NCBI GenBank assembly: GCA_965231125.1
Contig: OZ246414.1
Span: forward strand, 81,739-145,738
Reading direction: 5' to 3'
From: an uncultured Gammaproteobacteria bacterium
Lineage (GTDB): Bacteria > Patescibacteriota > Microgenomatia > Woykebacterales > RBG-16-39-9b
DNA: 64,000 nt
Part shown: positions 3,387 to 50,753 of the stretch, piece after piece
Layout: every line of letters begins with the position of its first letter
How positions within the stretch are numbered: position 1 is the first letter of the stretch
Notes under the pieces: generated by a model
Databases searched by the model: none
Told to the model about the DNA's origin: nothing
What the model saw: only the letters and a program-made list of their open reading frames with translations
Translations under genes and position numbers: made by a program

Positions 3387-3986
3387 ATGAAGAATAACAC
3401 AGGATTTTCAGTCATCATTCTATTGATCATTTTGGGACTAGTAGCGGGCGCTACGGTGTATGTTGCTAGGGAAAACCCCTCGATATTTAGAACCGTAGAA
3501 CAGAAACTCAAGACAATGATAACCCCAAAGCCACCGATTGGTAATCTAACACCCTCTCGCGACCTTAAGGGAACCTGGACTTCGGCCATTAGAGGCAAGG
3601 GAATCCAATTATACGGCCAATTCGCCACCGGACCTAGTACTACGAAAGTTTACGAAGATGGCGATGTTAAATTAGTAATAAATACGGTGAAGAACAATAT
3701 TGCTTATGGAAATATACGTTACACCAATCTGTGCTCTTCTGGCCAAACGTCTGTTCCCGGCTATGGCTATATTTCTGTACCAAAACAGTGCACCAGCGAT
3801 TCAGGGGCTAGGCCAATTCAAATAAGAGTTAGTGGTAGCCGGCTGGATTTTGGGACAATTGCCACTGGCAGTGCCACTTTTTCTATGCAGGGCAGTTATA
3901 CAACCCACATTATCTCTGGAACAATGACGATGACCACCTCTTATGGTGTTATTAAGGGGGAGTTCCATCTTAATCGTGTGCGATAG
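3387..3986 (+). CDS. N-terminally anchored secreted protein (unknown function)
   Basis: ATG at 3387 (MKNNTGFSVIILLIILGLVAG). The ORF track starts 2 codons earlier at TTG 3381. Confidence 0.5.
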   Translation: MKNNTGFSVIILLIILGLVAGATVYVARENPSIFRTVEQKLKTMITPKPPIGNLTPSRDLKGTWTSAIRGKGIQLYGQFATGPSTTKVYEDGDVKLVINTVKNNIAYGNIRYTNLCSSGQTSVPGYGYISVPKQCTSDSGARPIQIRVSGSRLDFGTIATGSATFSMQGSYTTHIISGTMTMTTSYGVIKGEFHLNRVR

Positions 3987-10256: not shown

Positions 10257-10716
10257 ATAACTCTCTTGCTTTTCGGAAAATTTCTTTATCACTTTTGAAG
10301 GAGAGGGTTCCTTCAACCTCATCGCTTGGTATCCACTGCGCGTCTTCCATTTCCCAATCGTGATCCGCTGGATCACCGGACAAATATTCCATCAGAAAAT
10401 ACGTAACTTTTTTCTTAACTAGCTGGCCTTCGAGTTTGTAGAAATATTCTATTGGTGAGAATTCTTGGACTATCTTTGCTTCCACTCCGCCTTCTTCTTT
10501 TACTTCGCGGACGGCAGTTGTTTGTCTGTCTTCGCCCGGATCAATAAGACCTTTGGGAAAAACCCAACCGTGGTGTTGGGAATGCTTTGTAAGGAGAATA
10601 TGAATTTGACTGTCCTCTTTTTTTAGTCCGGCTGGACGCAAGCTCCGCTTTAGTCGAGGACGTAAGCTCCGCTTATAGACAATGCCGCCAGCGCTTTTTT
10701 CAAATTTAAGAGCCAT
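10246..10716 (-). CDS. Nudix hydrolase
   Basis: Nudix box GLIDPGEDRQTTAVREVKEEGGVEA. Carries an N-terminal repeat-encoded insert KRSLRPRLKRSLRPAGLKK. Confidence 0.85.
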   Translation of the reverse strand: MALKFEKSAGGIVYKRSLRPRLKRSLRPAGLKKEDSQIHILLTKHSQHHGWVFPKGLIDPGEDRQTTAVREVKEEGGVEAKIVQEFSPIEYFYKLEGQLVKKKVTYFLMEYLSGDPADHDWEMEDAQWIPSDEVEGTLSFKSDKEIFRKARELLKK

Positions 10717-10783
10717 GTTTTTGCCTTTCAGCTTACTCTCTGGTAAAATTATACGCGTTTTTGAGGTAAAAAAGTAAATTCTT

Positions 10784-10859
10784 GCCCCCGTAGCTCAGTG
10801 GATAGAGCGCAACGTTGCGGACGTTGAGGCCGGAGGTTCGAATCCTCTCGGGGGCACCA
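10784..10859 (+). tRNA. tRNA-Arg (anticodon GCG)
   Basis: gcccccg ta gctc agtggata gagc g caacg tt-GCG-ga cgttg ... ggttcgaatcc ... cgggggc a cca. Confidence 0.85.
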
Positions 10860-10860
10860 T

Positions 10861-10950
10861 GGAGGGATGCCGGAGTGGTTTAACGGCCAGGTCTCGAAAA
10901 CCTTGGGTCCCGTAAGGGGCACGGAGGTTCAAATCCTCCTCCCTCCGCCA
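10861..10950 (+). tRNA. tRNA-Ser (anticodon CGA)
   Basis: ggagggatgccggagtgg..., anticodon loop ct-CGA-aa, long variable arm, encoded CCA. Confidence 0.9.
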
Positions 10951-10958
10951 CTAATATT

Positions 10959-11029
10959 GTCCCAGTAGCTCAGTGGAAAGATCGCTACGCGCTCTGCGAC
11001 CACTTCGTAGTCTAAAAGCGCAAAAACAT
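10959..11029 (+). pseudogene. tRNA-like 5' fragment fused to the dispersed repeat (not a functional tRNA)
   Basis: gtcccagtagctcagtggaaagatcgc mimics the acceptor and D-arm of the adjacent tRNA-Arg(CCG) (gtccctgtggctcaatggatagagcac). It continues as acgcgctctgcgacc... with no T-arm. Confidence 0.45.
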
Positions 11030-11105
11030 GTCCCTGTGGCTCAATGGATAGAGCACCAGTTTCCGGAACTGGGGATTGAGAGTTCGAATCTCTCCAGGGA
11101 CACCA
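11030..11105 (+). tRNA. tRNA-Arg (anticodon CCG)
   Basis: gtccctg tg gctc aatggata gagc a ccagt tt-CCG-ga actgg ... gagagttcgaatctctc cagggac a cca. Confidence 0.9.
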
Positions 11106-11845: not shown

Positions 11846-11935
11846 GGAGGGGTCGCATAGCTGGTCCATTGCACGGGTTTGCTAAACCCGCGAGCCTTTT
11901 GGCTCACGTGGGTTCGAATCCCACCCCCTCCGCCA
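11846..11935 (+). tRNA. tRNA-Ser (anticodon GCT)
   Basis: ggaggggtcgcatagctgg..., anticodon loop tt-GCT-aa, long variable arm, CCA. Confidence 0.9.
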
Positions 11936-12025
11936 GGAGAGGTGGCCGAGTGGTTTAAGGCGACGGTCTTGAAAACCGTTTCCCGAGTAATCGGGACGGG
12001 GGTTCGAATCCCTCCCTCTCCGCCA
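11936..12025 (+). tRNA. tRNA-Ser (anticodon TGA)
   Basis: ggagaggtggccgagtgg..., anticodon loop ct-TGA-aa, long variable arm, CCA. Directly abuts the previous tRNA. Confidence 0.9.
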
Positions 12026-26364: not shown

Positions 26365-26431
26365 GGCAGGTGTATTTAAATTCTATCCTTTGATAGCTTT
26401 AAAAACAATCCTTATCAAGAAGGTGTCCTTA

Positions 26432-26537
26432 GCTAGCCATTAAGATGGCTAGCACAGGATTCGGGAGTACCCGAATCACTTGGATTTGGTTACGGAGAAT
26501 CCTTAGTCCAAAGGACGCGGGACACTTTAAGTGTCCC
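26432..26537. repeat. hairpin cluster containing the left copy of the 33-bp inverted repeat
   Basis: Four consecutive hairpins: 26432-26453 (9-bp perfect stem), 26456-26503 (aggattc/gaatcct outer stem), 26506-26516, 26519-26537 (gggacac/gtgtccc). The 33-mer 26465-26497 is the reverse complement of 33337-33369 (32/33). Confidence 0.6.
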
Positions 26538-33233: not shown

Positions 33234-33336
33234 GCTTGTTACCTCAATTTTTCGGCGTACTACAGGTTTAATCCTGTAGTTCTTTTGATCTTTATTCGTT
33301 TTTTAAGGTGCACATTAGCTTTTCGAAAATAGATCG

Positions 33337-33399
33337 CTCCGTAACCAAATCCAAGTGATTTGGGTACTCTCGCGTTCTGTGCTTTAAAAAAGCTAAGGG
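33337..33399. repeat. right copy of the inverted repeat (33-mer plus extended imperfect arm)
   Basis: ctccgtaaccaaatccaagtgatttgggtactc (33337-33369) is the reverse complement of 26465-26497 with 1 mismatch. The arm continues ...gttctgtgct..agctaaggg, matching 26427-26457. Confidence 0.65.
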
Positions 33400-33817
33400 C
33401 TCTGGGTGACAAATTTCTTATCAACCAGAGCCCACCTTCGGGGTCCTATGAAGGGACACCTCAACTCGGAGGTGGCTCTGGATTATTTAGTTTAATTTTA
33501 AGTTCGCCCTTACTCATTTTTTCTAGCCTCTACTGACTGGCCGAATTTTAGCATAACTTAGCTTAAATGTCAACTATAAGTCATTTTGTAACTTCGAAAC
33601 CTGCGAGCTCTTGGTTTCTCAGGTACTCTCACGTCTCGCGCTAGGCGTCTTAACGCCTAGCTAAGAGCGCATCGGTTTTTATTCGCGCAGTACGATACAG
33701 TTTGACTCGGTTGCTTTTAGCCTCCCCATGAGCCATAATAATCCCTACAATAGTCGTAAAAAGCTATTTTTCGGCGAAGGATCAGCGAAGCGAGCCGAAG
33801 TATTGTAACCAAAAGTT

Positions 33818-34342
33818 ATGCAACAGCATCCTGTCCCACAGAACATAACAAGTTTTGAATTTAAGCTAGTTGGGTTTCTGACGATTAAGCAATTCGGCTA
33901 TCTTGCCGCTGCCGGAATTTTTTCCTTTGTCTTTTTCATTTCTCCAATACCGACCCTTTTAAAAACTATCGTTATTACTCCTTTTGCCGCAGCCGGACTT
34001 GCCTTTGCTTTTGCTAACATAAACGGTCTCTCGTTTGACAAGTGGATCGTTGCCTTTATTCACTCGGTCTATTCCCCGTCAAGAAGGGTTTGGCACAAAG
34101 TGCCGAAGGAGATAAGTTTTCTCGCGCCAAATTTTTCCTACTATCTCAAGCGGCCGCCTACCCAACAAAAAATTGCCAGTGGCGATCGGACTCGTTTAGA
34201 AAAATATCTTGCGCAGTTGCGAAACCAGCGTTTTAATTCTAATCTCGATGTTTTTGAGGAAATGCGCCTTTCAAAAATTGACTTTAGGGCGACTGTTCCT
34301 CACTTTACAACCGTAGACTCCCAAAGGGATGAAGGCGACTGA
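33818..34342 (+). CDS. PrgI-like (VirB3 analogue) membrane protein
   Basis: 174 aa. The N-terminus HPVPQNITSFEFKLVGFLTIKQFGYLAAAG followed by two TM segments is the pattern I associate with PrgI family proteins of Gram-positive-type T4SS. Confidence 0.55.
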   Translation: MQQHPVPQNITSFEFKLVGFLTIKQFGYLAAAGIFSFVFFISPIPTLLKTIVITPFAAAGLAFAFANINGLSFDKWIVAFIHSVYSPSRRVWHKVPKEISFLAPNFSYYLKRPPTQQKIASGDRTRLEKYLAQLRNQRFNSNLDVFEEMRLSKIDFRATVPHFTTVDSQRDEGD

Positions 34343-36564: not shown

Positions 36565-38428
36565 TCCTTTTAAAAAAAGGGAAAAGGTTGACCCGGTAGA
36601 AGCAGAACTGGCTCAAACCCGAGCAAAAGTGGCCAATGTTCTCGGTAGGGGAATGACAGATGTAAAGGACGTGATTGCTCCACCGGCCATTGAAATCGAC
36701 TTTGATTACTTAAGAATTGGTGAGTTGTACTTCCGCACATTATTTATCACTGGCTACCCTCGCTTTGTCGGTGCTAATTGGCTGGCTCAAATTATAAATT
36801 TTGACCATACCCTTGATATTTCCTTCTACTACTACCCCGTTGAATCGAAGGGAATACTTGACGATCTGCGGCGAAAAATCGCCGAGATGGAGGCTACGAT
36901 TGAAAGCGACCTAGAGGCAGGTAGAGTCTTAGATCCTGGGGTCCGAATTGCTTTAGAGGATGCTCAAGCCCTCCAGGAACAGCTAACCGCTGGTATCGAA
37001 CGCTTCTTCCAGTTTTCTTTCTACATAACCATACCCGCTTACTCCTTAGAAGAACTCAACTCTGTTACCAAACAAGTAGAAGCGGCCCTTGGGTCTCTTT
37101 TGGTCGTCTCCAAGCACGCGACGCTACAACAAGAACAGGCTTTTCAATCTGTCTTACCTACCTTCACCGATAAACTTTTGGTGACTCGGAACATGGACAC
37201 GACTTCTTTGGCTACAACTTTTCCTTTTGTTTCTAGCGAGCTAACTGCTAATGAAGGGGTTATGTACGGCATTAACGAACACAATGGATCTTTGGTCATT
37301 TTTGACCGCTTTAGCCTGGAAAATGCAAACTGCGTCGTCTTTGCAAAATCCGGAGCCGGAAAAAGCTACTTAGTTAAACTGGAGACTTTGCGTCAATTAA
37401 TGTTTGGCACTGAAGTTTTAGTTATCGATCCAGAAAACGAGTATCAAGCCTTAGCCGAGGCGATTGGAGGAGAATATATGGAATTTAAGGCCGAGTCCGG
37501 AATAAAAATAAACCCCTTCGATCTTTCCGGTATCTACCAGCAAGGAGAAAACGAACTAGGTTTAAAAATTTTGGCTCTTCACTCCCTTTTCCGAATTATG
37601 ATGGGTCAGCTAACGCCAATGGAAGATGCTGTTTTAGACAGAGCCTTGGTTGCTACCTATAAATTAAAGGGTATAACTCCAGACCCGGCCACCCAAACAA
37701 GACAGCCGCCGATTATGGAGGACCTTTACAATATCTTACTTAACATGGCGGAGCCGGAAGCTAAGGGAATGGCAACTCGTCTGGAAAAATTCATTCGGGG
37801 TTCTTTATCCGGTGTATTTAATGAGCAAAGCAATATTAACCTTAGAAATACCTTTACTGTTTTTTCTATCCGTGATATGGAGGACGAACTGCGCCCAATT
37901 GCAATGTTCATCGTCTTAGACTTTATCTGGACGAGGATCAAAAGAAATCTTAAAAAGCGGGTTCTTGTGGTAGACGAGGCTTGGTATTTAATGAAGTACC
38001 CTGACTCAGCTGCTTTCATGTACTCCATCGCAAAAAGAGCCCGTAAATACTTTTTAGGGGTGACAACAATAACTCAAGACGTCGAAGACTTTCTTTCTGG
38101 AGATTACGGTAAGGCAATTGTTACTAACTCATCTATGCAATTTCTATTAAAGCAGTCACCGGCGGCGATAGATGCAGTTACTGATATTTTTTATTTGTCC
38201 GAGGGGGAGAGAAATTTACTGCTTTCTGCCGAGATCGGCGAGGGCCTTTTCTTTGCTGGCCCTAACCACGTGGCTATTAGGGTTCAGGCTGCACCACACG
38301 AACACGGGTTAATTACTTCAAACCCAGCTGAGCTTGTTGAGAGTAACCAGCCCTCAAATATTTCCGCGCCAAACAGCCCCCCGACAGAAGAAACTACTTA
38401 TCCGGGGTCTACCCCAAACCAACTCTAA
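36554..38428 (+). CDS. VirB4/TraC/PrgJ-like type IV secretion ATPase
   Basis: 624 aa. Walker A FAKSGAGKSY, Walker B RVLVVDEAW, and a VirB4-like N-terminal domain (FRTLFITGYPRFVGANWL). Confidence 0.85.
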   Translation: MQLNPFKKREKVDPVEAELAQTRAKVANVLGRGMTDVKDVIAPPAIEIDFDYLRIGELYFRTLFITGYPRFVGANWLAQIINFDHTLDISFYYYPVESKGILDDLRRKIAEMEATIESDLEAGRVLDPGVRIALEDAQALQEQLTAGIERFFQFSFYITIPAYSLEELNSVTKQVEAALGSLLVVSKHATLQQEQAFQSVLPTFTDKLLVTRNMDTTSLATTFPFVSSELTANEGVMYGINEHNGSLVIFDRFSLENANCVVFAKSGAGKSYLVKLETLRQLMFGTEVLVIDPENEYQALAEAIGGEYMEFKAESGIKINPFDLSGIYQQGENELGLKILALHSLFRIMMGQLTPMEDAVLDRALVATYKLKGITPDPATQTRQPPIMEDLYNILLNMAEPEAKGMATRLEKFIRGSLSGVFNEQSNINLRNTFTVFSIRDMEDELRPIAMFIVLDFIWTRIKRNLKKRVLVVDEAWYLMKYPDSAAFMYSIAKRARKYFLGVTTITQDVEDFLSGDYGKAIVTNSSMQFLLKQSPAAIDAVTDIFYLSEGERNLLLSAEIGEGLFFAGPNHVAIRVQAAPHEHGLITSNPAELVESNQPSNISAPNSPPTEETTYPGSTPNQL

Positions 38429-39528
38429 ACTTTAACTTCGACAGTTCCTTCATTAACTTTAAAAATTTTACTCTCCTTTAAAATCCACTCAGGGAAGATA
38501 GTCTCCGAAGTGGCGGTGATAATACTTTGCTGCTTTGGCAAAGCCTTAAGTATATGTTCTTGGTTAATTTTATCAAACTCACTTAAAACATCGTCCAAAA
38601 GAAGGGTAGGGTCGGTGCCGAAACTCTCTTTAATAAAGGCTAGCTCGACCAATTTTAAGGCTAAGGTGGCAAGTCTTTTCTCACCCCGAGATCCAAAGAT
38701 ATTAATATCTTTTTCCAGAAGCACGTCCGACTTTAAAGTTTCAAACACTATTTTGAAATCGTCTCGGTGGGGACCAAAAGACGTTACCATTTTTTCGATA
38801 TCGGTTTCTTTGTTTTTTACTAGTTGCAGGCTAATTAGCCTTTTTATTTCACTGGCGTCTTTAACTTTTTCTTTGAACGGCGCGTAATCTATGCGTATAG
38901 TCGCGTTTGCAATTTTTTCACTGGTTTTTTTCAGAAGCTTGTTTATCTCTCCAACAAACGCGAGCCGCCTCTCCCAAATGAAGCTTCCTAGGCTGGCAAT
39001 CTGTTTGTCCCAAGGCAAAAGGTCTTGGGGTTTACCTGCCTTTATAAGCCAGAGGAGTTTATTGCGGTTTTTCATGGCTCTAAAGTACCGGCTCAAAGAG
39101 TAGAGATAGTTTTTATCCGTCACCGAAAGGGTCTGGTCTAAAAACCGTCGTCTTTTTTCCGGACCGCCGGAAACAATATCCAAGCTTTCTGGTGAGAACA
39201 GGACTACCGGAAAGACTCCAATTACGGAGGCTCTGTTTTTGGGTTGATTGTTAACAGAAACTTTTTTCATCGTTTTGTTGATAAGAATTTTAATTTCGTT
39301 ATGCGCGGCGTTACCCCTAACTTGGGCTTCTTCCGCAGCCCAATTAATTAGATCCGCGTCGATATTCGTCCGAAACGATTTCGTGGTGGCTAAAAGATAA
39401 ATGGCTTCAATTATATTTGTCTTACCTTGAGCGTTATTACCGACAAGCAGATTAATTTTCTGAGAAAGAGGTAGTTTCAAATTTGAAATGTTTCTAAAAT
39501 TTTTTAAATAGAGGTTTTCTAACCACAT
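38425..39528 (-). CDS. recF: DNA replication/repair protein RecF
   Basis: 367 aa: LKNFRN...GNNAQGKTNIIEAIYLL and signature LLLDDVLSEFD. Confidence 0.9.
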   Translation of the reverse strand: MWLENLYLKNFRNISNLKLPLSQKINLLVGNNAQGKTNIIEAIYLLATTKSFRTNIDADLINWAAEEAQVRGNAAHNEIKILINKTMKKVSVNNQPKNRASVIGVFPVVLFSPESLDIVSGGPEKRRRFLDQTLSVTDKNYLYSLSRYFRAMKNRNKLLWLIKAGKPQDLLPWDKQIASLGSFIWERRLAFVGEINKLLKKTSEKIANATIRIDYAPFKEKVKDASEIKRLISLQLVKNKETDIEKMVTSFGPHRDDFKIVFETLKSDVLLEKDINIFGSRGEKRLATLALKLVELAFIKESFGTDPTLLLDDVLSEFDKINQEHILKALPKQQSIITATSETIFPEWILKESKIFKVNEGTVEVKV

Positions 39529-40631
39529 TAGTTCTGGGTTCGAACCGGCATAACAAGATACATAAATGAGGGGTCTTCGGCAGACTTTATCAGTGCTGGT
39601 TTATCGGGGCCGGCGAATTGAACCTCAAACTTTTCGCCGGTTAGTACTCCTACGCCCTCGGCGAGAAAACGACTGTTAAAAGATATTTTGATATCCTGTC
39701 CCTTAACTTTAGCCTGTAGACTTACCCTTCCTTCCCCAATTTGCGCTGAAGAAGCGCTTATAGATTGCTCTTTCTCGCTAAAGAGTAGGTGAACAACATT
39801 TCCGATATCTTTTGCAAAGGTGGTCGCCGTTTTTAGATTACTAAGAAAATCCTCTTTTTCTAAGAGAGCACTCGCGATAAATTGATCTGGAATTATTTGT
39901 TCAAACTTAGGGAATTCTCCCGCAAGTAGTTTTGTAAATACTTCTGTATGGGCTACTTCAAAGTAGGCTTGATTATCGCCCCGCGATATACCTATATTTA
40001 TAAACTCATCTTCTGATTCATCAAGAATTTTGCTTGACTCCATAAGTACACGCGCCGGAACAATTACTTCTTCCTCGTCCAGAAGGACTCCCATATCTTT
40101 TTTGGCGAGCCGATAACCGTCGGTTGCAACTAGCTGAGTGTTTTCTTTATTGGTCCTAAACAAGACTCCTGTTAGGATTGGTCGCCCTTCGTCTAAACTT
40201 GCAGCTACCCCTACTTGTTTTACCGAAGACAAGAGAGATTTTTTTTTAATTTTTTTGCTTTTTGATTTCTCTGCTTCCGGTGGGGTGGGGAACTCGCTGG
40301 CGGAAATTGTCGGCACGCTCGCGTGCGTTTTGGCGGTGTTGATCACTAAGCTTTCTTTTTCTAATTCTAATGATATCTTCTCGTCCGCTACACTAGCCAA
40401 AAACTCAATTAAAGTTCTTGCTGGAGCGGTTACTGCCCCTTCATTTAAAATCTTCGCTGGGACCCAGGTTTTGATTGTTGTTTCTAAATCCGTACCAATT
40501 AATCTCAACCCCCCAGATTCTGTTTCCATGAGGATATTACCTAAGACCGGAGTTGTCGGTTTAACCGTCACTGCTTTACCAACAAAACTGACCGCTTTGT
40601 AAATATCATCTTTGTTGATCTGTAATTTCAT
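39528..40631 (-). CDS. dnaN: DNA polymerase III beta sliding clamp
   Basis: Start at ATG 40631 (MKLQINKDDIYKAV). Three-domain clamp length. PILGNILMET, TDGYRLA. Confidence 0.9.
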   Translation of the reverse strand: MKLQINKDDIYKAVSFVGKAVTVKPTTPVLGNILMETESGGLRLIGTDLETTIKTWVPAKILNEGAVTAPARTLIEFLASVADEKISLELEKESLVINTAKTHASVPTISASEFPTPPEAEKSKSKKIKKKSLLSSVKQVGVAASLDEGRPILTGVLFRTNKENTQLVATDGYRLAKKDMGVLLDEEEVIVPARVLMESSKILDESEDEFINIGISRGDNQAYFEVAHTEVFTKLLAGEFPKFEQIIPDQFIASALLEKEDFLSNLKTATTFAKDIGNVVHLLFSEKEQSISASSAQIGEGRVSLQAKVKGQDIKISFNSRFLAEGVGVLTGEKFEVQFAGPDKPALIKSAEDPSFMYLVMPVRTQN

Positions 40632-47492: not shown

Positions 47493-47543
47493 AGGATTCA
47501 CAGTAGCTGGCTCGCCAAGCGAGGTATAAGCTACGAGAATCCT
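47493..47543. repeat. hairpin with the same outer stem (aggattc...gagaatcct) as 26456-26503 but a different interior
   Basis: Outer stem 47493-47499 / 47537-47543. Inner stems gtagc/gctac and ctcgc/gcgag. Lies 5 nt upstream of the -35. Confidence 0.5.
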
Positions 47544-47547
47544 ATAG

Positions 47548-47576
47548 TTGACAAATCCTTTAAGTTGTGTTAAAAT
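47548..47576 (+). promoter_or_regulatory. TTGACA-N17-TAAAAT promoter of the 47.6-48.5 kb GC-rich unit
   Basis: TTGACA 47548-47553, TAAAAT 47571-47576. Confidence 0.5.
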
Positions 47577-47582
47577 ACACCC

Positions 47583-47825
47583 ATTAACAATTGAAAATAG
47601 ATCGCTAACGCGCTCTGCGTCGCTAGCGCTCCTAATGGTTACAAGGTAAAAACTTTTAAAGGCACTTTGTAACTGGAGTTGAAGTTATAGCTAACTGTCA
47701 TTACGGAAACGTCCTGAAGTCTAGAACAATTCGAGTCCAGTTACCAGGTGCCTTTGTGTATCTAGGCGGTACGTCTTGCTGACCCGGCAAGCTATCGTTA
47801 AACAAATTATGGGTATGGAGGAACG
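47583..47825 (+). promoter_or_regulatory. long (~245 nt) structured 5' leader containing a copy of the dispersed repeat
   Basis: Repeat copy 47594-47638. Long-range stem aaaggcac..taactgga (47658-47677) / tccagtta..gtgccttt (47735-47754). SD atGGAGGa 47816-47822. Confidence 0.4.
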
Positions 47826-48152
47826 ATGTCAGTCAGACACCCCCTGTCAGACGTCGAAAGTTTCGAAAAGAAAGGTGTTAGGTATGTTCGGGTTTGCCAC
47901 GTAGGAAAGGGATCATTCCACTTCGAAGTCTACAGACGAATCAAACGAAGTGGGAGGCTCCATATGATTATCAGACCAGAGGCATACTCTCCTATCAGTG
48001 GGGAACTTCGCCCTTCTTCATCAGCGGTGTTCGTGGCTGAAGCGCAAGAGGATCTGTTCTGGCGTATGGTGCTCCCTTTCACAGACGCTGTAAACAGGTT
48101 GCCCGACGACGTGTCAATACAATTCATAGGCTGGACAAAGTATGGTGTGTAG
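47826..48152 (+). CDS. GC-rich hypothetical protein (108 aa)
   Basis: ATG with GGAGGA SD. No family recognised. Confidence 0.45.
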   Translation: MSVRHPLSDVESFEKKGVRYVRVCHVGKGSFHFEVYRRIKRSGRLHMIIRPEAYSPISGELRPSSSAVFVAEAQEDLFWRMVLPFTDAVNRLPDDVSIQFIGWTKYGV

Positions 48153-48264
48153 TGGTAATAATCCACAATCAAGCTTTGCTTGATCCCCAAATCCTAAGCA
48201 AATCTCACATACGGTGTCGTCGCTGTCGTTAGCGGCTGACAAAATAGTCAGCTAGAAAGGACGA

Positions 48265-48480
48265 ATGGTGATGGATCAGTTCACGCGGTTAGTTCTCGGG
48301 TGTATTGGCACGGTGATAGTTGCCATTGCTACACTTTGGCTGATCGATGGCATCTTCTGGACGCAAGTCTCGCCAAGGGCACTCATAATCGCGCCGGCGG
48401 TGATCGTTCTAGCGGTTGGAGGAGTCATGGTTCTAACCGCTGTGCTAACAGGAGACAGGGCACCGAGGGTACGACTGTAG
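48265..48480 (+). CDS. GC-rich small 2-TM membrane protein (71 aa)
   Basis: Two hydrophobic helices. AAAGGA SD. Alternative start at ATG 48271. Confidence 0.4.
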   Translation: MVMDQFTRLVLGCIGTVIVAIATLWLIDGIFWTQVSPRALIIAPAVIVLAVGGVMVLTAVLTGDRAPRVRL

Positions 48481-48503
48481 AAGGAGTAAAATCGGTGCCA
48501 CAG

Positions 48504-48546
48504 AAAGACCACAAAGCGAGTAATCGCAGCGTGGTCTTTTTATTTT
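48504..48546 (+). terminator. terminator of the GC-rich unit, overlapping the valS stop codon
   Basis: aaagaccac / gtggtcttt stem followed by ttatttt. Confidence 0.6.
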
Positions 48547-50753
48547 GGCCACGCGGAAACCATGATGGAATCATCCTTTTTTAGTCCGTTAGGACGCAGA
48601 GCGCGAAGCGATCTATTTGGTAACTTCTGCCAAAGATCTTCGGTTATGTACGGCATGAAGGGGTGGAGTAGTCGCAAAGATTCTTCAAGGACTTTTTCCA
48701 AAACCGGCTGAGCTTCGTCTCGTCGGGATTTTGAACTTTCAATATATTTATCGGCAAAGCGGTGCCAGACGAAATCGTAAAGCTCTCCGACCGCCTGACC
48801 AAAACGATAATTCTCGATTGCTTTGGTTACAATTTCTCTTGTTTTCTCCAATTCCTCCAAAATCCATTTGTCATCCAGGTGAGTGGGTGTAGGGTGTAGG
48901 GTATAGGGTTTAGGGTTTTTTGATTCGGGTTCATTCGAGTTATTATTCGCGTCCATTAGAATATACCGGCCGATGTTCCAGAGTTTATTAGTGAAATTGC
49001 GCATTCCTTTTATTTTATGTTCGCCAAGGTTAGCATCATTGCCTGGACCAGTTCCGAAGACGAGGGCCATCCGGACTGCGTCCGCACCGTATTTTTCCGC
49101 AACATCCAGCGGATCAATGACATTATTTTTACTCTTGCTCATTTTTTGACCCTTTTCGTCGCGAACCAGGCCATGTAAGTAAACCGTTTCAAAAGGGACT
49201 TTACCGGTCACATAAAGACCAAGCATGATCATGCGCGCGACCCAGAAGAAAAGGATATCGTAGCCAGTTTCCATTACAGAGGTTGGGTAAAATTTCTTAA
49301 AATCGGCTTCATCTTTTTGTCCGTAACCCAAAGTGGTAAACGGCCATTGCCCCGAGGAAAACCAAGTATCGAGGGTGTCCGGATCCTGTTCAAACTTGGT
49401 TGAGTCGCAATTTGCGCACCTAGTCGGGGGTTCAACTGAGACAAACTCCCCATTTTTCATTTTGCATTCTTCATTCTTCATTTCCTGACAGTAATAAACT
49501 GGCAGGCGGTGGCTCCACCACAGTTGCCGGGATATACACCAATCGTGAATATTCTCCATCCAATTAAAATAAATTTTTTCGAAACGGGGTGGAATGATTT
49601 TGATTTTGTTACTCTTAACCGCTGCCAGGGCGTCTTTAGCCAAATTCTTGCCGCTCTTACCGGTTTTGTTGACAGCAACAAACCATTGTTTGGAAACTAG
49701 AGGCTCGACGACAGTATCAGAGCGTTCGCAGACACCGACACTAGTCTTGTGATGCTGCGTTTTTTCCAACAGGTCCAGTTTTTCCAGATCGGTAACGATT
49801 TGTTTGCGGGCGGCGTATTTATCCAAACCAGAGTACTTACCTGCCTCTTTGGTCATTTTGTCGTCAAAACCGATGACTTGAATTTGGGCTAGTGAGTGAC
49901 GCTGTCCGACTTCATAATCGTTCGGATCGTGTGCTGGTGTTATCTTCACCGCTCCACTACCGAACTTTGGGTCAACGTAGGAATCTTTAATAATAGGAAT
50001 CTCCCGGTTCATCAACGGTAGGATGGCTGCCTTTCCAACTAAAGTCTTGTAACGTTTATCGCCCGGGTTAACCGCGACCGCTGTGTCGCCCAGCATTGTT
50101 TCCGGTCGGCTCGTGGCTACAGTTACAGTTTCTTTAGAATTCTTAACTGGATAACGGATAAACCAAAGGTTCGATTCTTTTTCTTTGTGAAGCACTTCGA
50201 GATCGGAAAGTACAGTCGCGCAGCGCGGACACCAATTAACCATTCGGCTGCCGCGGTAAATTAACCCGTCGTCATAAAGGTCTTTGAAGGTTTGGTAAAC
50301 TACTTTGGAGATTTCTGGATCAAGAGTAAATTTTTCGCGAGACCAATCTAAGCTAAATCCCATTGCCCGTAGTTGGTCGTACATTTGCTTTTTATTTTCT
50401 TGGGTGAATGCGTAAGTTTGCTTGAAGAATTCTTCCCGGCCAAGGTGGTGGCGAGTCTTACCTTGCCTTTCCAAAACCTCCCGTTCGTAAACGACTTGGG
50501 TTTGGATGCCGGCGTGATCTGCTCCTGGCAGCCACAAAGTCGAATCCCCAAGCATCCGGTGGTAGCGGATTAAAATATCCTCGATGACGTACATGGCGTG
50601 GCCGATGTGGAGCCGACCGTTGGCGTTTGGCGGAGGTAAAATAATTGAATAAGGTTTGCCTTTAGGATTGGTCTCTGGCTTGAAAAACTCCCCCTTTTCC
50701 CAAAGGGAATACCATTTGCTTTCAACTTGTTTATGCTCGTAAACTTTTTCCAT
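48540..50753 (-). CDS. valS: valine--tRNA ligase (short form without C-terminal coiled coil)
   Basis: 737 aa. PPPNANGRLHIGHA (HIGH), KMSKSKNN (KMSKS). Carries the repeat-encoded insert NRSLRALRPNGLKK near the C-terminus. Confidence 0.95.
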   Translation of the reverse strand: MEKVYEHKQVESKWYSLWEKGEFFKPETNPKGKPYSIILPPPNANGRLHIGHAMYVIEDILIRYHRMLGDSTLWLPGADHAGIQTQVVYEREVLERQGKTRHHLGREEFFKQTYAFTQENKKQMYDQLRAMGFSLDWSREKFTLDPEISKVVYQTFKDLYDDGLIYRGSRMVNWCPRCATVLSDLEVLHKEKESNLWFIRYPVKNSKETVTVATSRPETMLGDTAVAVNPGDKRYKTLVGKAAILPLMNREIPIIKDSYVDPKFGSGAVKITPAHDPNDYEVGQRHSLAQIQVIGFDDKMTKEAGKYSGLDKYAARKQIVTDLEKLDLLEKTQHHKTSVGVCERSDTVVEPLVSKQWFVAVNKTGKSGKNLAKDALAAVKSNKIKIIPPRFEKIYFNWMENIHDWCISRQLWWSHRLPVYYCQEMKNEECKMKNGEFVSVEPPTRCANCDSTKFEQDPDTLDTWFSSGQWPFTTLGYGQKDEADFKKFYPTSVMETGYDILFFWVARMIMLGLYVTGKVPFETVYLHGLVRDEKGQKMSKSKNNVIDPLDVAEKYGADAVRMALVFGTGPGNDANLGEHKIKGMRNFTNKLWNIGRYILMDANNNSNEPESKNPKPYTLHPTPTHLDDKWILEELEKTREIVTKAIENYRFGQAVGELYDFVWHRFADKYIESSKSRRDEAQPVLEKVLEESLRLLHPFMPYITEDLWQKLPNRSLRALRPNGLKKDDSIMVSAWPK

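Follow-up and report, generated by a model that had tools for sequence, protein, structure and literature searches.

A tRNA-Arg gene fragment probably split at its D-loop by a small mobile hairpin repeat in a Candidate Phyla Radiation bacterium

The stretch of bacterial DNA analyzed here, 64,000 nucleotides (nt) long and called the window throughout, contains a tRNA cluster in which a piece of tRNA-Arg sequence at 10959–11029 is joined to a copy of a dispersed repeat, directly ahead of an intact tRNA-Arg(CCG) gene. An earlier note on this DNA had described the piece as the tRNA-like head of the repeat family. Coordinates below are window positions, and L-numbers denote loci of related genomes. 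The cluster is laid out as follows.

10784..10859, + strand: intact tRNA-Arg(GCG), first gene of the tRNA operon (ARAGORN; Rfam, 71 bits)
10861..10950, + strand: intact tRNA-Ser(CGA) (ARAGORN, Rfam)
10951..10958, + strand: spacer CTAATATT, the start of a 79-nt, apparently lineage-specific insertion between Ser(CGA) and Arg(CCG)
10959..10978, + strand: 5' fragment of a tRNA-Arg (the head), tRNA positions 1–20, GTCCCAGTAGCTCAGTGGAA; acceptor 5' strand, D-stem 5' strand and D-loop
10979..11014, + strand: 36-nt repeat unit, recognized by a match to the repeat core, with ends set by an empty valS site
11015..11023, + strand: continuation of the tRNA-Arg fragment (the tail), tRNA positions 21–29, AAAGCGCAA; D-stem 3' strand, G26 and start of the anticodon stem
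11024..11029, + strand: linker AAACAT, ahead of the intact tRNA-Arg(CCG)
11030..11105, + strand: intact tRNA-Arg(CCG), directly 3' of the broken fragment (ARAGORN, Rfam)

When the unit at 10979–11014 is deleted in silico, GTCCCAGTAGCTCAGTGGAA and AAAGCGCAA join into a sequence that matches positions 1–29 of tRNA-Arg(GCG) without gaps, at 25 of 29 positions. The head is identical to tRNA-Arg(GCG) at 17/20 positions and to tRNA-Arg(CCG) at 16/20, and the tail matches its counterpart in tRNA-Arg(GCG), AGAGCGCAA, at 8/9. Over a slightly longer interval, 10957–10989, identity is 85% to 10782–10814, which covers the 5' portion of tRNA-Arg(GCG), against 73% for the tRNA-Arg(CCG) next to it. A perfect match of 13 nt, GTAGCTCAGTGGA, is found at just two sites in the 64 kb, in tRNA-Arg(GCG) and in the head. 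The sequence of 10959–11029 is thus as first described, and its resemblance to tRNA-Arg is real. The adjacent tRNA-Arg(CCG), which the earlier note took as the counterpart, does match head plus tail at 22/29 positions, but tRNA-Arg(GCG), 175 nt upstream, is closer. Likewise, the assignment of 10959–10986 to the acceptor and D-arm holds for 10959–10978, but “gatcgct” belongs to the repeat, whose unit starts at 10979. The true D-stem 3' strand of the fragment lies beyond the repeat unit at 11015–11019 (AAAGC). The break falls between the last D-loop base and A21/G22, and the tRNA sequence ends at the start of the anticodon stem.

Only tRNA positions 1–29 are present at 10959–11029, with no anticodon, T-arm or 3' acceptor strand, and therefore the fragment cannot make a tRNA. 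ARAGORN calls no tRNA over this interval, and Rfam (RF00005 threshold 29 bits) gives no match there, even at E<=10 on a 500-nt slice. These calls bear out the missing T-arm that had been noted before, and on them we rejected a bona fide or unusual tRNA, an outcome that had been left to a covariance-model search. For a split or BHB-intron tRNA of the archaeal type, a partner half-gene or a bulge-helix-bulge at the junction would have to restore the tRNA; the window holds no 3' tRNA half, as the seven tRNAs found by ARAGORN are all complete, and the host is bacterial. A group I intron was also rejected: the insert is 36 nt long (76–103 nt in L029, L081 and L083, described below), it lies in the D-loop, the tRNA is incomplete and Rfam gives no intron match. 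Introns of group I that interrupt tRNA genes are at least 200 nt long, with a P1–P9 core, and sit in the anticodon loop, the tRNA being complete in all other respects. In the literature found, insertions into tRNAs of Patescibacteria are treated in one paper, on group I introns at position 35/36 (10.1101/2025.07.03.662931). A closed tRNA-like RNA formed through an outer stem was rejected as well, the outer pairing not being conserved among the tRNA-embedded cases. We consider it likely that 10959–11029 represents a GCG-type tRNA-Arg gene copy that is truncated, dead and split by a mobile repeat.

Across the tRNA cluster there is one promoter-like site only, predicted at 10721–10749, and no predicted terminator up to 11150. 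Therefore, the fragment is most likely an internal spacer of a single Arg–Ser–Arg polycistronic precursor. It would be discarded as RNase P and the 3' processing enzymes excise the flanking tRNAs.

The unit that splits the fragment has a common layout: a first hairpin, AGAKCGC-loop-GCGCTCT, usually with a T.C mismatch (hairpin 1); GC; a second hairpin, G-stem-loop-stem-C (hairpin 2); and TA. In the window unit these are AGATCGC-TAC-GCGCTCT at 10979–10995, the GC linker at 10996–10997, G-ACCAC-TTC-GTAGT-C at 10998–11012 and TA at 11013–11014. Hairpin 2 is degenerate here, differing from the common ACCACTTCGTGGRCTA form (ACCAC-TTC-GTGGR) by two changes, both of which break pairs; the unit is an old copy with hairpin 2 in decay. 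The window contains the core, AGATCGCT-N(1-2)-CGCGCTCTGCG, three times (10979+, 47599+ and 48614-) against a chance expectation of 0, in agreement with the earlier statement that the sequence runs on into the body of a dispersed repeat. Units are 30–36 nt long, most commonly 33 nt (9 of 20 cleanly delimited units), and 36 nt when hairpin 2 has the ACCAC…GTGG form seen at 10979–11014. Hairpin 1 covaries, with variants AGAGTGC/GCACTCT, AGATCACT/AGTGCTCT, AGCACGC/GCGTGCT, AGGATTC/GAATCCT and GGGACAC/GTGTCCC, and in long forms it is extended by an inner hairpin (in the window, at 33331–33395 and 26430–26503). Hairpin 2 is short and highly variable in sequence with its pairing kept; in an alignment of nine sequences, 3 of 3 variable pairs change on both sides, a count that is illustrative given that the set was picked for pairing. 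A hairpin followed by CTA stands after the core in 18–27 of 50 copies, versus 1.2–1.6% of background GCG sites. To the left, units are preceded by T at −1 in 38/43 cases and by A at −2 in 32/43.

The copies were collected with an exact pattern, so that conservation of the core is partly an artifact. For the same reason, GCGAAGC on the reverse strand of hairpin 1, a very stable DNA mini-hairpin, is not counted as evidence, as the search pattern fixed those bases. A structure-only descriptor for divergent members gave 38 matches versus a shuffle mean of 31 and is not specific. Rfam finds no known RNA family over the unit or its long forms. The orientation of units relative to neighboring genes is near even (~9 sense to 9 antisense), with copies inside open reading frames (ORFs) in both orientations, and single copies fold no better than shuffles; on these grounds, a strand-specific RNA element was rejected.

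The exact ends of the unit come from the comparison of filled and empty sites. By protein alignment, the window valyl-tRNA synthetase (ValRS) reads LPN-RSLRALRPNGL-KKDDSIMV, with 11–12 residues more than close homologs that read LPNK..(D)SIMV. In the DNA of valS this corresponds to a clean 33-nt block, AGATCGC...GGACTA, between CCAAAT and AAAAAGG, and L209 has the empty site, CCAAAC-AAAAGG, with no duplication. Because of this pair of filled and empty sites, the mobile block can be said to start exactly at AGATCGC and to end at CTA. Units also come and go in the NUDIX gene beside the tRNA cluster (none in L078, a single mini-unit in L079, two in the window) and in topoisomerase I (TopA), where L045 has a 36-nt unit that L059 lacks. 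In L055, compared with its ortholog L060, a second, different unit lies exactly between AAAT and the AGATCGC of the older unit. A search for target-site duplications, as recommended before, came out negative as a general feature: with copies in tandem arrays set aside, direct repeats of at least 9 nt flank only 2 of ~50 copies. The unit inserts as a discrete block, after (A)T, in either gene orientation and without regular target duplication; its insertion contexts are intergenic DNA, protein genes in frame, sites beside earlier copies, and tRNA genes.

The last context is not limited to the window. Four broken tRNA genes carry the unit at the D-loop/D-stem junction: the window fragment and those of L081, L083/84/85 and L029, the hosts outside the window being two Arg and one Met. 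The junction has the form GG(N)AT, unit, AGAGC. The percentages below are identities of the neighboring 212-aa protein, by which the relatives of the locus were found.

L081 (64%): 5' flank an old tRNA-Arg(GCG), GCCCCTGTAGCTCAGTGGGAT; long unit AGCACGC...GCGTGCT-GCG-ACCACTTCGTGGACTA; 3' flank AGAGCGC...
L083/84/85 (53%): 5' flank GCGACCGTAGCTCAATCGGAT; long unit; 3' flank AGAGCGCTGGGTTGCGGGAC; then “CGA” and an intact tRNA-Arg(GCG)
L029: 5' flank a Met-like fragment, GGCTACGTAGCTCAGTGGT; long unit AGCACGC...GCGTGCT-GCG-ACCTCGCAAAGCGAGGACTA; 3' flank AGAGCAGCGGACTCT; then, after 8 nt, an intact tRNA-Met

All four tRNA-embedded units are in the tRNA sense, share the junction to within the 1–2 nt ambiguity of a common AG, and have a hairpin 2 of the GCG-A-CC...GG-R-CTA type. 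In L081, 9 nt of the anticodon arm are deleted 3' of the unit, and the T-loop of the old gene holds a nested, whole tRNA-Arg(GCG). The L083 fragment is not called a tRNA by Rfam. Since the “CGA” spacer is retained, the L083 layout would be explained by a simple deletion from an ancestral Arg(GCG)-Ser(CGA)-CGA-Arg(CCG) arrangement. The unit forms differ among the cases and one host is of Met type, and therefore at least two of the D-loop insertions are independent, and probably more.

A short sequence preference could account for this recurrence. The heptamer AGAGCGC/AGATCGC (AGAKCGC) stands directly 3' of 5 of 28 well-delimited units, versus 0.35% after other CTA triplets. Earlier units begin with this heptamer, which explains the mixed tandem arrays (L005, L013, L016, L017, L041, L055 and window 26430–26537), and many tRNAs have it as the 3' strand of their D-stem. 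The preference would thus explain why tRNA D-loops are hit repeatedly at one nucleotide. In this respect the suggestion that the element targets tRNA-like sequence fared well. We would go further only tentatively: the 30–36-nt unit may be among the smallest site-selective mobile elements, recognizing the D-stem AGAGCGC, perhaps via its own GCGCTCT strand, killing tRNA genes and driving their turnover in reduced Candidate Phyla Radiation (CPR) genomes, with the intact tRNA that follows representing an insertion-linked repair or replacement. We hold this extended proposal to be possible but doubtful.

Two side observations concern the same loci. The working tRNA-Arg(GCG) genes of L081 (1040–1116, −) and L083 (3796–3872, +) are 78–88% identical to CCG-type bodies and 69–74% to GCG-type bodies, which looks like anticodon remolding after loss of the original GCG-type gene that now lies broken alongside. 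L072 has, at ~1085–1155, a Leu(TAA)-like tRNA 5' fragment that ARAGORN does not call. It lies 24 nt upstream of tRNA-Ile(TAT), its break falls in the anticodon loop, and it abuts an oppositely oriented unit at the 3' end of that unit.

The relation of unit to tRNA could also be the reverse, with the repeat family derived from a tRNA, as had been suggested. In such an origin, like that of short interspersed elements (SINEs), the family would consist of a tRNA 5' part with hairpins in its D-loop, and headless copies would be 5'-truncated. The 5' junction of the unit, ATAGAKCGC, does resemble D-loop/D-stem sequence (ATAGAGCGC), hairpin 1 amounts to the heptamer plus its complement, and the tRNA-embedded copies of L081, L083 and L029 are long and diverse and could be older. 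Tested against the copies themselves, the idea fails at several points. The empty valS site places the start of the mobile block at AGATCGC, all of the 40 canonical copies in other genomes are headless, as are the other window copies, and the heads follow the host tRNA, being Arg or Met. In L081, the flanks reach into the tRNA 3' part, with T-stem and 3' acceptor end, and there are no full-length heads bearing an A/B box. A metagenome scan for head-plus-unit fusions found, among the matches listed, low-GC copies in L086, L090 and L172, all without a head. Adjacency of a tRNA-like piece to repeated or mobile DNA is shared with tRNA-derived SINEs and with partial tRNA copies at att sites, but here the tRNA piece is host sequence on both sides of the unit, outside the mobile block. 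We therefore regard a tRNA origin as very unlikely, and a tRNA-like head has no place in the description of the family. Nor should 10959–11029 be annotated as a tRNA.

How the truncated gene came to stand ahead of Arg(CCG) is a separate matter. Contigs of the same species (L075–77) have a 79-nt spacer identical to that of the window. In L078, L079 and L080 (61%) the order is Arg(GCG)-Ser(CGA)-3 nt-Arg(CCG), the Ser(CGA)-Arg(CCG) spacer of L207 (68%) consists of 42 nt of unrelated sequence, and L208 and L206 are also without the fragment. As the spacer of the relatives is 3 nt or an unrelated 42 nt, the sampled relatives never had an intact tRNA at this position, a point that had been left to be checked, and the 79 nt are lineage-specific. 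The neighborhood is unstable. The tRNA clusters at 10784–11105 and 11846–12025, on either side of the 212-aa gene, are both inverted relative to the flanking protein genes; the same inversion is found in L081, L207 and L206 (one cluster seen), relative to L078–L080 and L208. In L206, positions 3696–3800 include a 20-nt duplicate of the tRNA-Ser(CGA) 3' end, ~80 nt from the gene, and the 42-nt spacer of L207 (949–990) ends in GGAGACGCCA, like a tRNA 3' end.

Such instability would suit an explanation in which the fragment is the scar of an integrase island or of a tRNA-cluster rearrangement, and the unit landed in it later by chance. Both clusters are inverted versus L078–80, which marks the cluster as a rearrangement hot spot; the L206 duplicate and the possible tRNA 3' remnant in the same spacer of L207 speak for it too; and the breakpoints of the fragments fall in the anticodon stem or loop, which Williams, writing in NAR in 2002, is said to have described as the classical integrase crossover site. 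But integrase scars duplicate the 3' part of a tRNA, as a direct repeat bounding an integrase island, and here a 5' fragment lies 6 nt from the intact gene with no ORF between; across the cases 0–14 nt separate fragment and intact gene, with no island or integrase. Chance landing, moreover, leaves the presence of the unit at one same nucleotide in four broken tRNAs unexplained. We think a scar of this kind quite unlikely. Of the suggestion that this is an integration scar at a tRNA gene, what survives is the dead tRNA-Arg fragment, not an integrase attachment scar.

The recurrence of one architecture before intact tRNA genes in four genomes might instead reflect function, with fragment and hairpins forming a leader or small RNA that is released by RNase P or regulates maturation of the downstream tRNA. 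The D-arm halves flanking the unit are conserved, and folding z-scores are −2.1 to −3.1. These figures have to be set against outer pairings that differ between cases, a window copy whose hairpin 2 is decaying and that has no Rfam match, and relatives (L078–80, L207 and L208) that are without the fragment. Units at other places lie in either orientation and also within coding sequence. A functional RNA of this kind is, in our judgment, highly improbable.

Several observations weigh against a dead tRNA gene split by a D-loop-seeking mobile unit. First, the window genome keeps an intact Arg(GCG), so that the fragment calls for a further step, either duplication of part of the gene or transfer of head, unit and tail as one piece, which we could not reconstruct, and the tail matches tRNA-Arg over only 9 nt. 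Second, simple insertion does not predict that a broken fragment should be followed by an intact tRNA within 0–8 nt, as in the window, L083 and L029, nor that a whole tRNA should be nested in the T-loop of L081, 14 nt after the T-stem 5' strand. Third, the D-loop cases of L081 and L083 come from the window's own gene neighborhood and may not all be independent. Fourth, the valS and TopA insertion sites have no adjoining AGAGCGC heptamer, so the preference is not strict, and the TopA copy in L045 is flanked by a 12-nt direct repeat. Fifth, weak searches of ORFs around the copies and of ten window ORFs found no mobilizing enzyme for the unit. Finally, genomes with proteins just 55–78% identical have one and the same 20-nt core, and some copies are kept at orthologous sites (L055/L060, L041/L043), which could mean a host function.

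The identity of the core and the retention at orthologous sites would be expected if the repeat were a DNA or RNA motif selected by the host, such as a protein-binding or uptake-type signal, and its occurrence in tRNA genes were incidental; the pairing of hairpin 2, which is kept through sequence change, would fit too. The identity of the core is in part the artifact of exact-pattern search described above. A selected motif also does not readily account for the discrete presence or absence of 24–36 nt at orthologous valS, NUDIX, TopA and tRNA spacer sites, for tandem arrays that mix unlike units, or for insertion into essential coding regions and the killing of tRNA genes. Thus, a host-selected motif seems to us unlikely, and we return to a mobile unit that splits tRNA genes.

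With low confidence, we suggest that movement of the unit is by way of a single-stranded DNA hairpin on which a HUH/Y1-type enzyme acts in trans, because insertion is without duplication, the left flank is conserved, the hairpin ends are asymmetric and tandem arrays are mixed. The sense strand of highly transcribed tRNA genes could be exposed as single-stranded DNA. Such traits fit the REP/RAYT and IS200/IS605 systems, in which HUH/Y1 enzymes act in trans on single-strand hairpins (PMC6006769, PMC3116915). A phmmer search with an IS608 TnpA query, a weak test, gave no match among 1650 ORFs around copies from 61 low-GC sources, and Pfam found no transposase or HUH nuclease among ten window ORFs. 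Our literature searches turned up no account of repeats of this kind from CPR bacteria. Several systems share some of their features.

The ends of IS200/IS605 elements and their miniature derivatives (PATEs) are similar in having no target duplication, no terminal inverted repeats and a conserved short left flank, in having hairpins by both ends, one with a conserved mismatch, and in inserting beside the left end of an existing copy to build tandem arrays. The unit inserts 3' of a short flank without duplication in the same way, with the TopA site of L045 and its 12-nt repeat as an exception. It differs in being just 30–36 nt long, in having two hairpins unrelated in sequence, and in the lack of a TnpA in the weak test above.

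The REP/BIME/REPIN repeats with their RAYT (TnpA_REP) enzymes are 20–40-nt imperfect palindromes, dispersed and clustered, mostly intergenic, with subfamilies within a genome. They are presumed to be single-strand hairpin substrates (PMC3116915, PMC3733652) and are occasionally inserted in frame in genes (PMC6006769). The unit is likewise a short, multi-copy, imperfect palindrome. In contrast to REPs, which have one palindrome or an inverted doublet, it has two unlike hairpins, a fixed GC linker and a CTA end; its host is a CPR bacterium, and a weak search found no RAYT. The GT[AG]G/CGTC tag at the foot of REP hairpins is absent: the opposite-strand foot is YTAG, and the CTAC form (= GTAG) occurs in ~9 of 48 copies. 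Repeated insertion into tRNA D-loops is, to our knowledge, no trait of REPs.

Two further families invite comparison. The Rickettsia palindromic elements (RPE), reportedly described by Ogata et al. in 2000, are said to be palindromic selfish repeats of a reduced genome, ~100–150 bp long and Rickettsia-specific, that lie in frame in protein genes, where they are translated as an extra surface peptide, and also in RNA genes. They are mentioned in passages of PMC1779305 and PMC1166351. The unit similarly lies in frame, without disrupting the gene, in ValRS, NUDIX and TopA. It differs in its length of 24–36 nt, its CPR lineage, its defined ends (AGAKCGC...CTA) and its preference for tRNA D-loops; it is set apart by size and host. 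The cyanobacterial small dispersed repeats (SDR), which Elhai et al. reportedly described in 2008, are said to be ~21–27 nt, embedded in hairpins and nested in each other, with mobilizing machinery that was unknown. Their sequence and host are different from those of the unit, and we know of no targeting of tRNA D-loops by SDRs. They are cited in a passage of PMC3116915.

To define the distribution of the family, an exact-core scan was made with one genome per species, which gave 74 loci. High-GC matches lack all other features of the unit and are chance matches, as are three matches in viral contigs, in a coding gene. By contrast, ~40 low-GC copies share flanks and downstream structure, and multi-copy, low-GC matches occur only in Woykebacteria-like CPR metagenome-assembled genomes (MAGs), with at least three canonical copies in the 64-kb window and up to 8–9 exact-core copies per related MAG. 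The carriers are named Candidatus Woykebacteria or labeled Nanoarchaeia (loci L002, L003, L005, L014, L017, L018, L041, L049, L059, L068 and L072), Gammaproteobacteria (L001, L008, L016, L027, L030, L038, L039, L050, L056 and L065), Saccharimonadales or “bacterium”. The proteins of the oddly labeled MAGs, topoisomerase I for example, are 56–78% identical to those of Woykebacteria loci; the labels are therefore unreliable and the public organism names probably wrong. For this reason, and with the high-GC matches due to chance, a cross-domain distribution of the core was rejected, and we treat the family as specific to one Woykebacteria-like CPR lineage. The ValRS relatives of the window protein are from Patescibacteria. 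No protein match ties the window directly to the named Woykebacteria loci, whose sequences come from different parts of the genome; its taxon is deduced from the shared repeat and from its CPR-type genes. A sequencing-adaptor artifact was considered and dropped, as copies lie in conserved genomic contexts and in frame.

These comparisons give a nucleotide-level definition of a very small mobile hairpin repeat in CPR bacteria and show that even genomes of ~1 Mb tolerate it within the proteins valyl-tRNA synthetase and topoisomerase I and within a NUDIX hydrolase. The fragment itself is largely explained; recurrent D-loop targeting, with its consequences for tRNA genes, is the part worth following. 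If the D-loop preference holds, the repeat would be a natural agent of both the death of tRNA genes and the remolding of anticodons in these lineages, and a compact model of target choice by hairpin DNA elements.

Besides the unit in the tRNA fragment, the window contains the following copies.

10624..10674, − strand: two tandem mini-units of 24 and 27 nt in the NUDIX gene, hairpin 1 being 4 bp in both, translated KRSLRPRL and KRSLRPAGL
26430..26537, − strand: two tandem units of unlike sequence
33331..33395, + strand: long-form unit with an AGATCGC/GCGTTCT hairpin 1 that holds an inner hairpin, then GTG, hairpin 2 and CTA
47599..47634, + strand: unit c2, hairpin 1 loop TAAC, 22 nt downstream of a TTGACA-17-TAAAAT promoter-like site
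48582..48614, − strand: unit c3, 33 nt, in frame in the 3' end of valS, translated RSLRALRPNGL

The NUDIX mini-units are placed in the loop after the first strand of the NUDIX hydrolase. In the pair at 26430–26537, the unit at 26504–26537 has hairpin 1 GGGACAC/GTGTCCC, and the long-form unit at 26430–26503 has AGGATTC/GAATCCT, with a loop that is the inverted partner of 33337–33383 (47 nt, 89%). The sequence AAAATAGATCGCT is common to the 10959–11029 stretch and 33326. Long-form units are thus found at 26430–26537 (−) and 33331–33395 (+), and also at 33588–33663 (+); the inverted pair encloses ~6.8 kb with three ORFs without a Pfam match, including one of 1167 aa where the GC content is 55.6%. 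The presence of a PrgI-family gene (33818–34342) hints at a type IV secretion-like cluster of the CPR type.

Two sites, 47543–47583 (+) and 33538–33578 (−), share a promoter-like sequence of 41 nt, TATAGTTGACA-N17-TAAAAT, each time beside a repeat unit; the site at 47548–47576 matches the sigma-70 consensus at 11/12 positions. The ~900 nt between unit c2 and the end of valS (47640–48540) hold only two short ORFs (108 and 71 aa) without a Pfam match and a possible long hairpin at 47647–47764; a short insertion or an RNA missing from the annotation may lie here. Elsewhere in the window, a 300-nt direct repeat (1056–1355 and 1999–2298, 81% identical and 943 nt apart) lies near tRNA-Asn, and the cumulative GC skew has its minimum, with a change of sign, at ~38000–40000, as expected at a replication origin.

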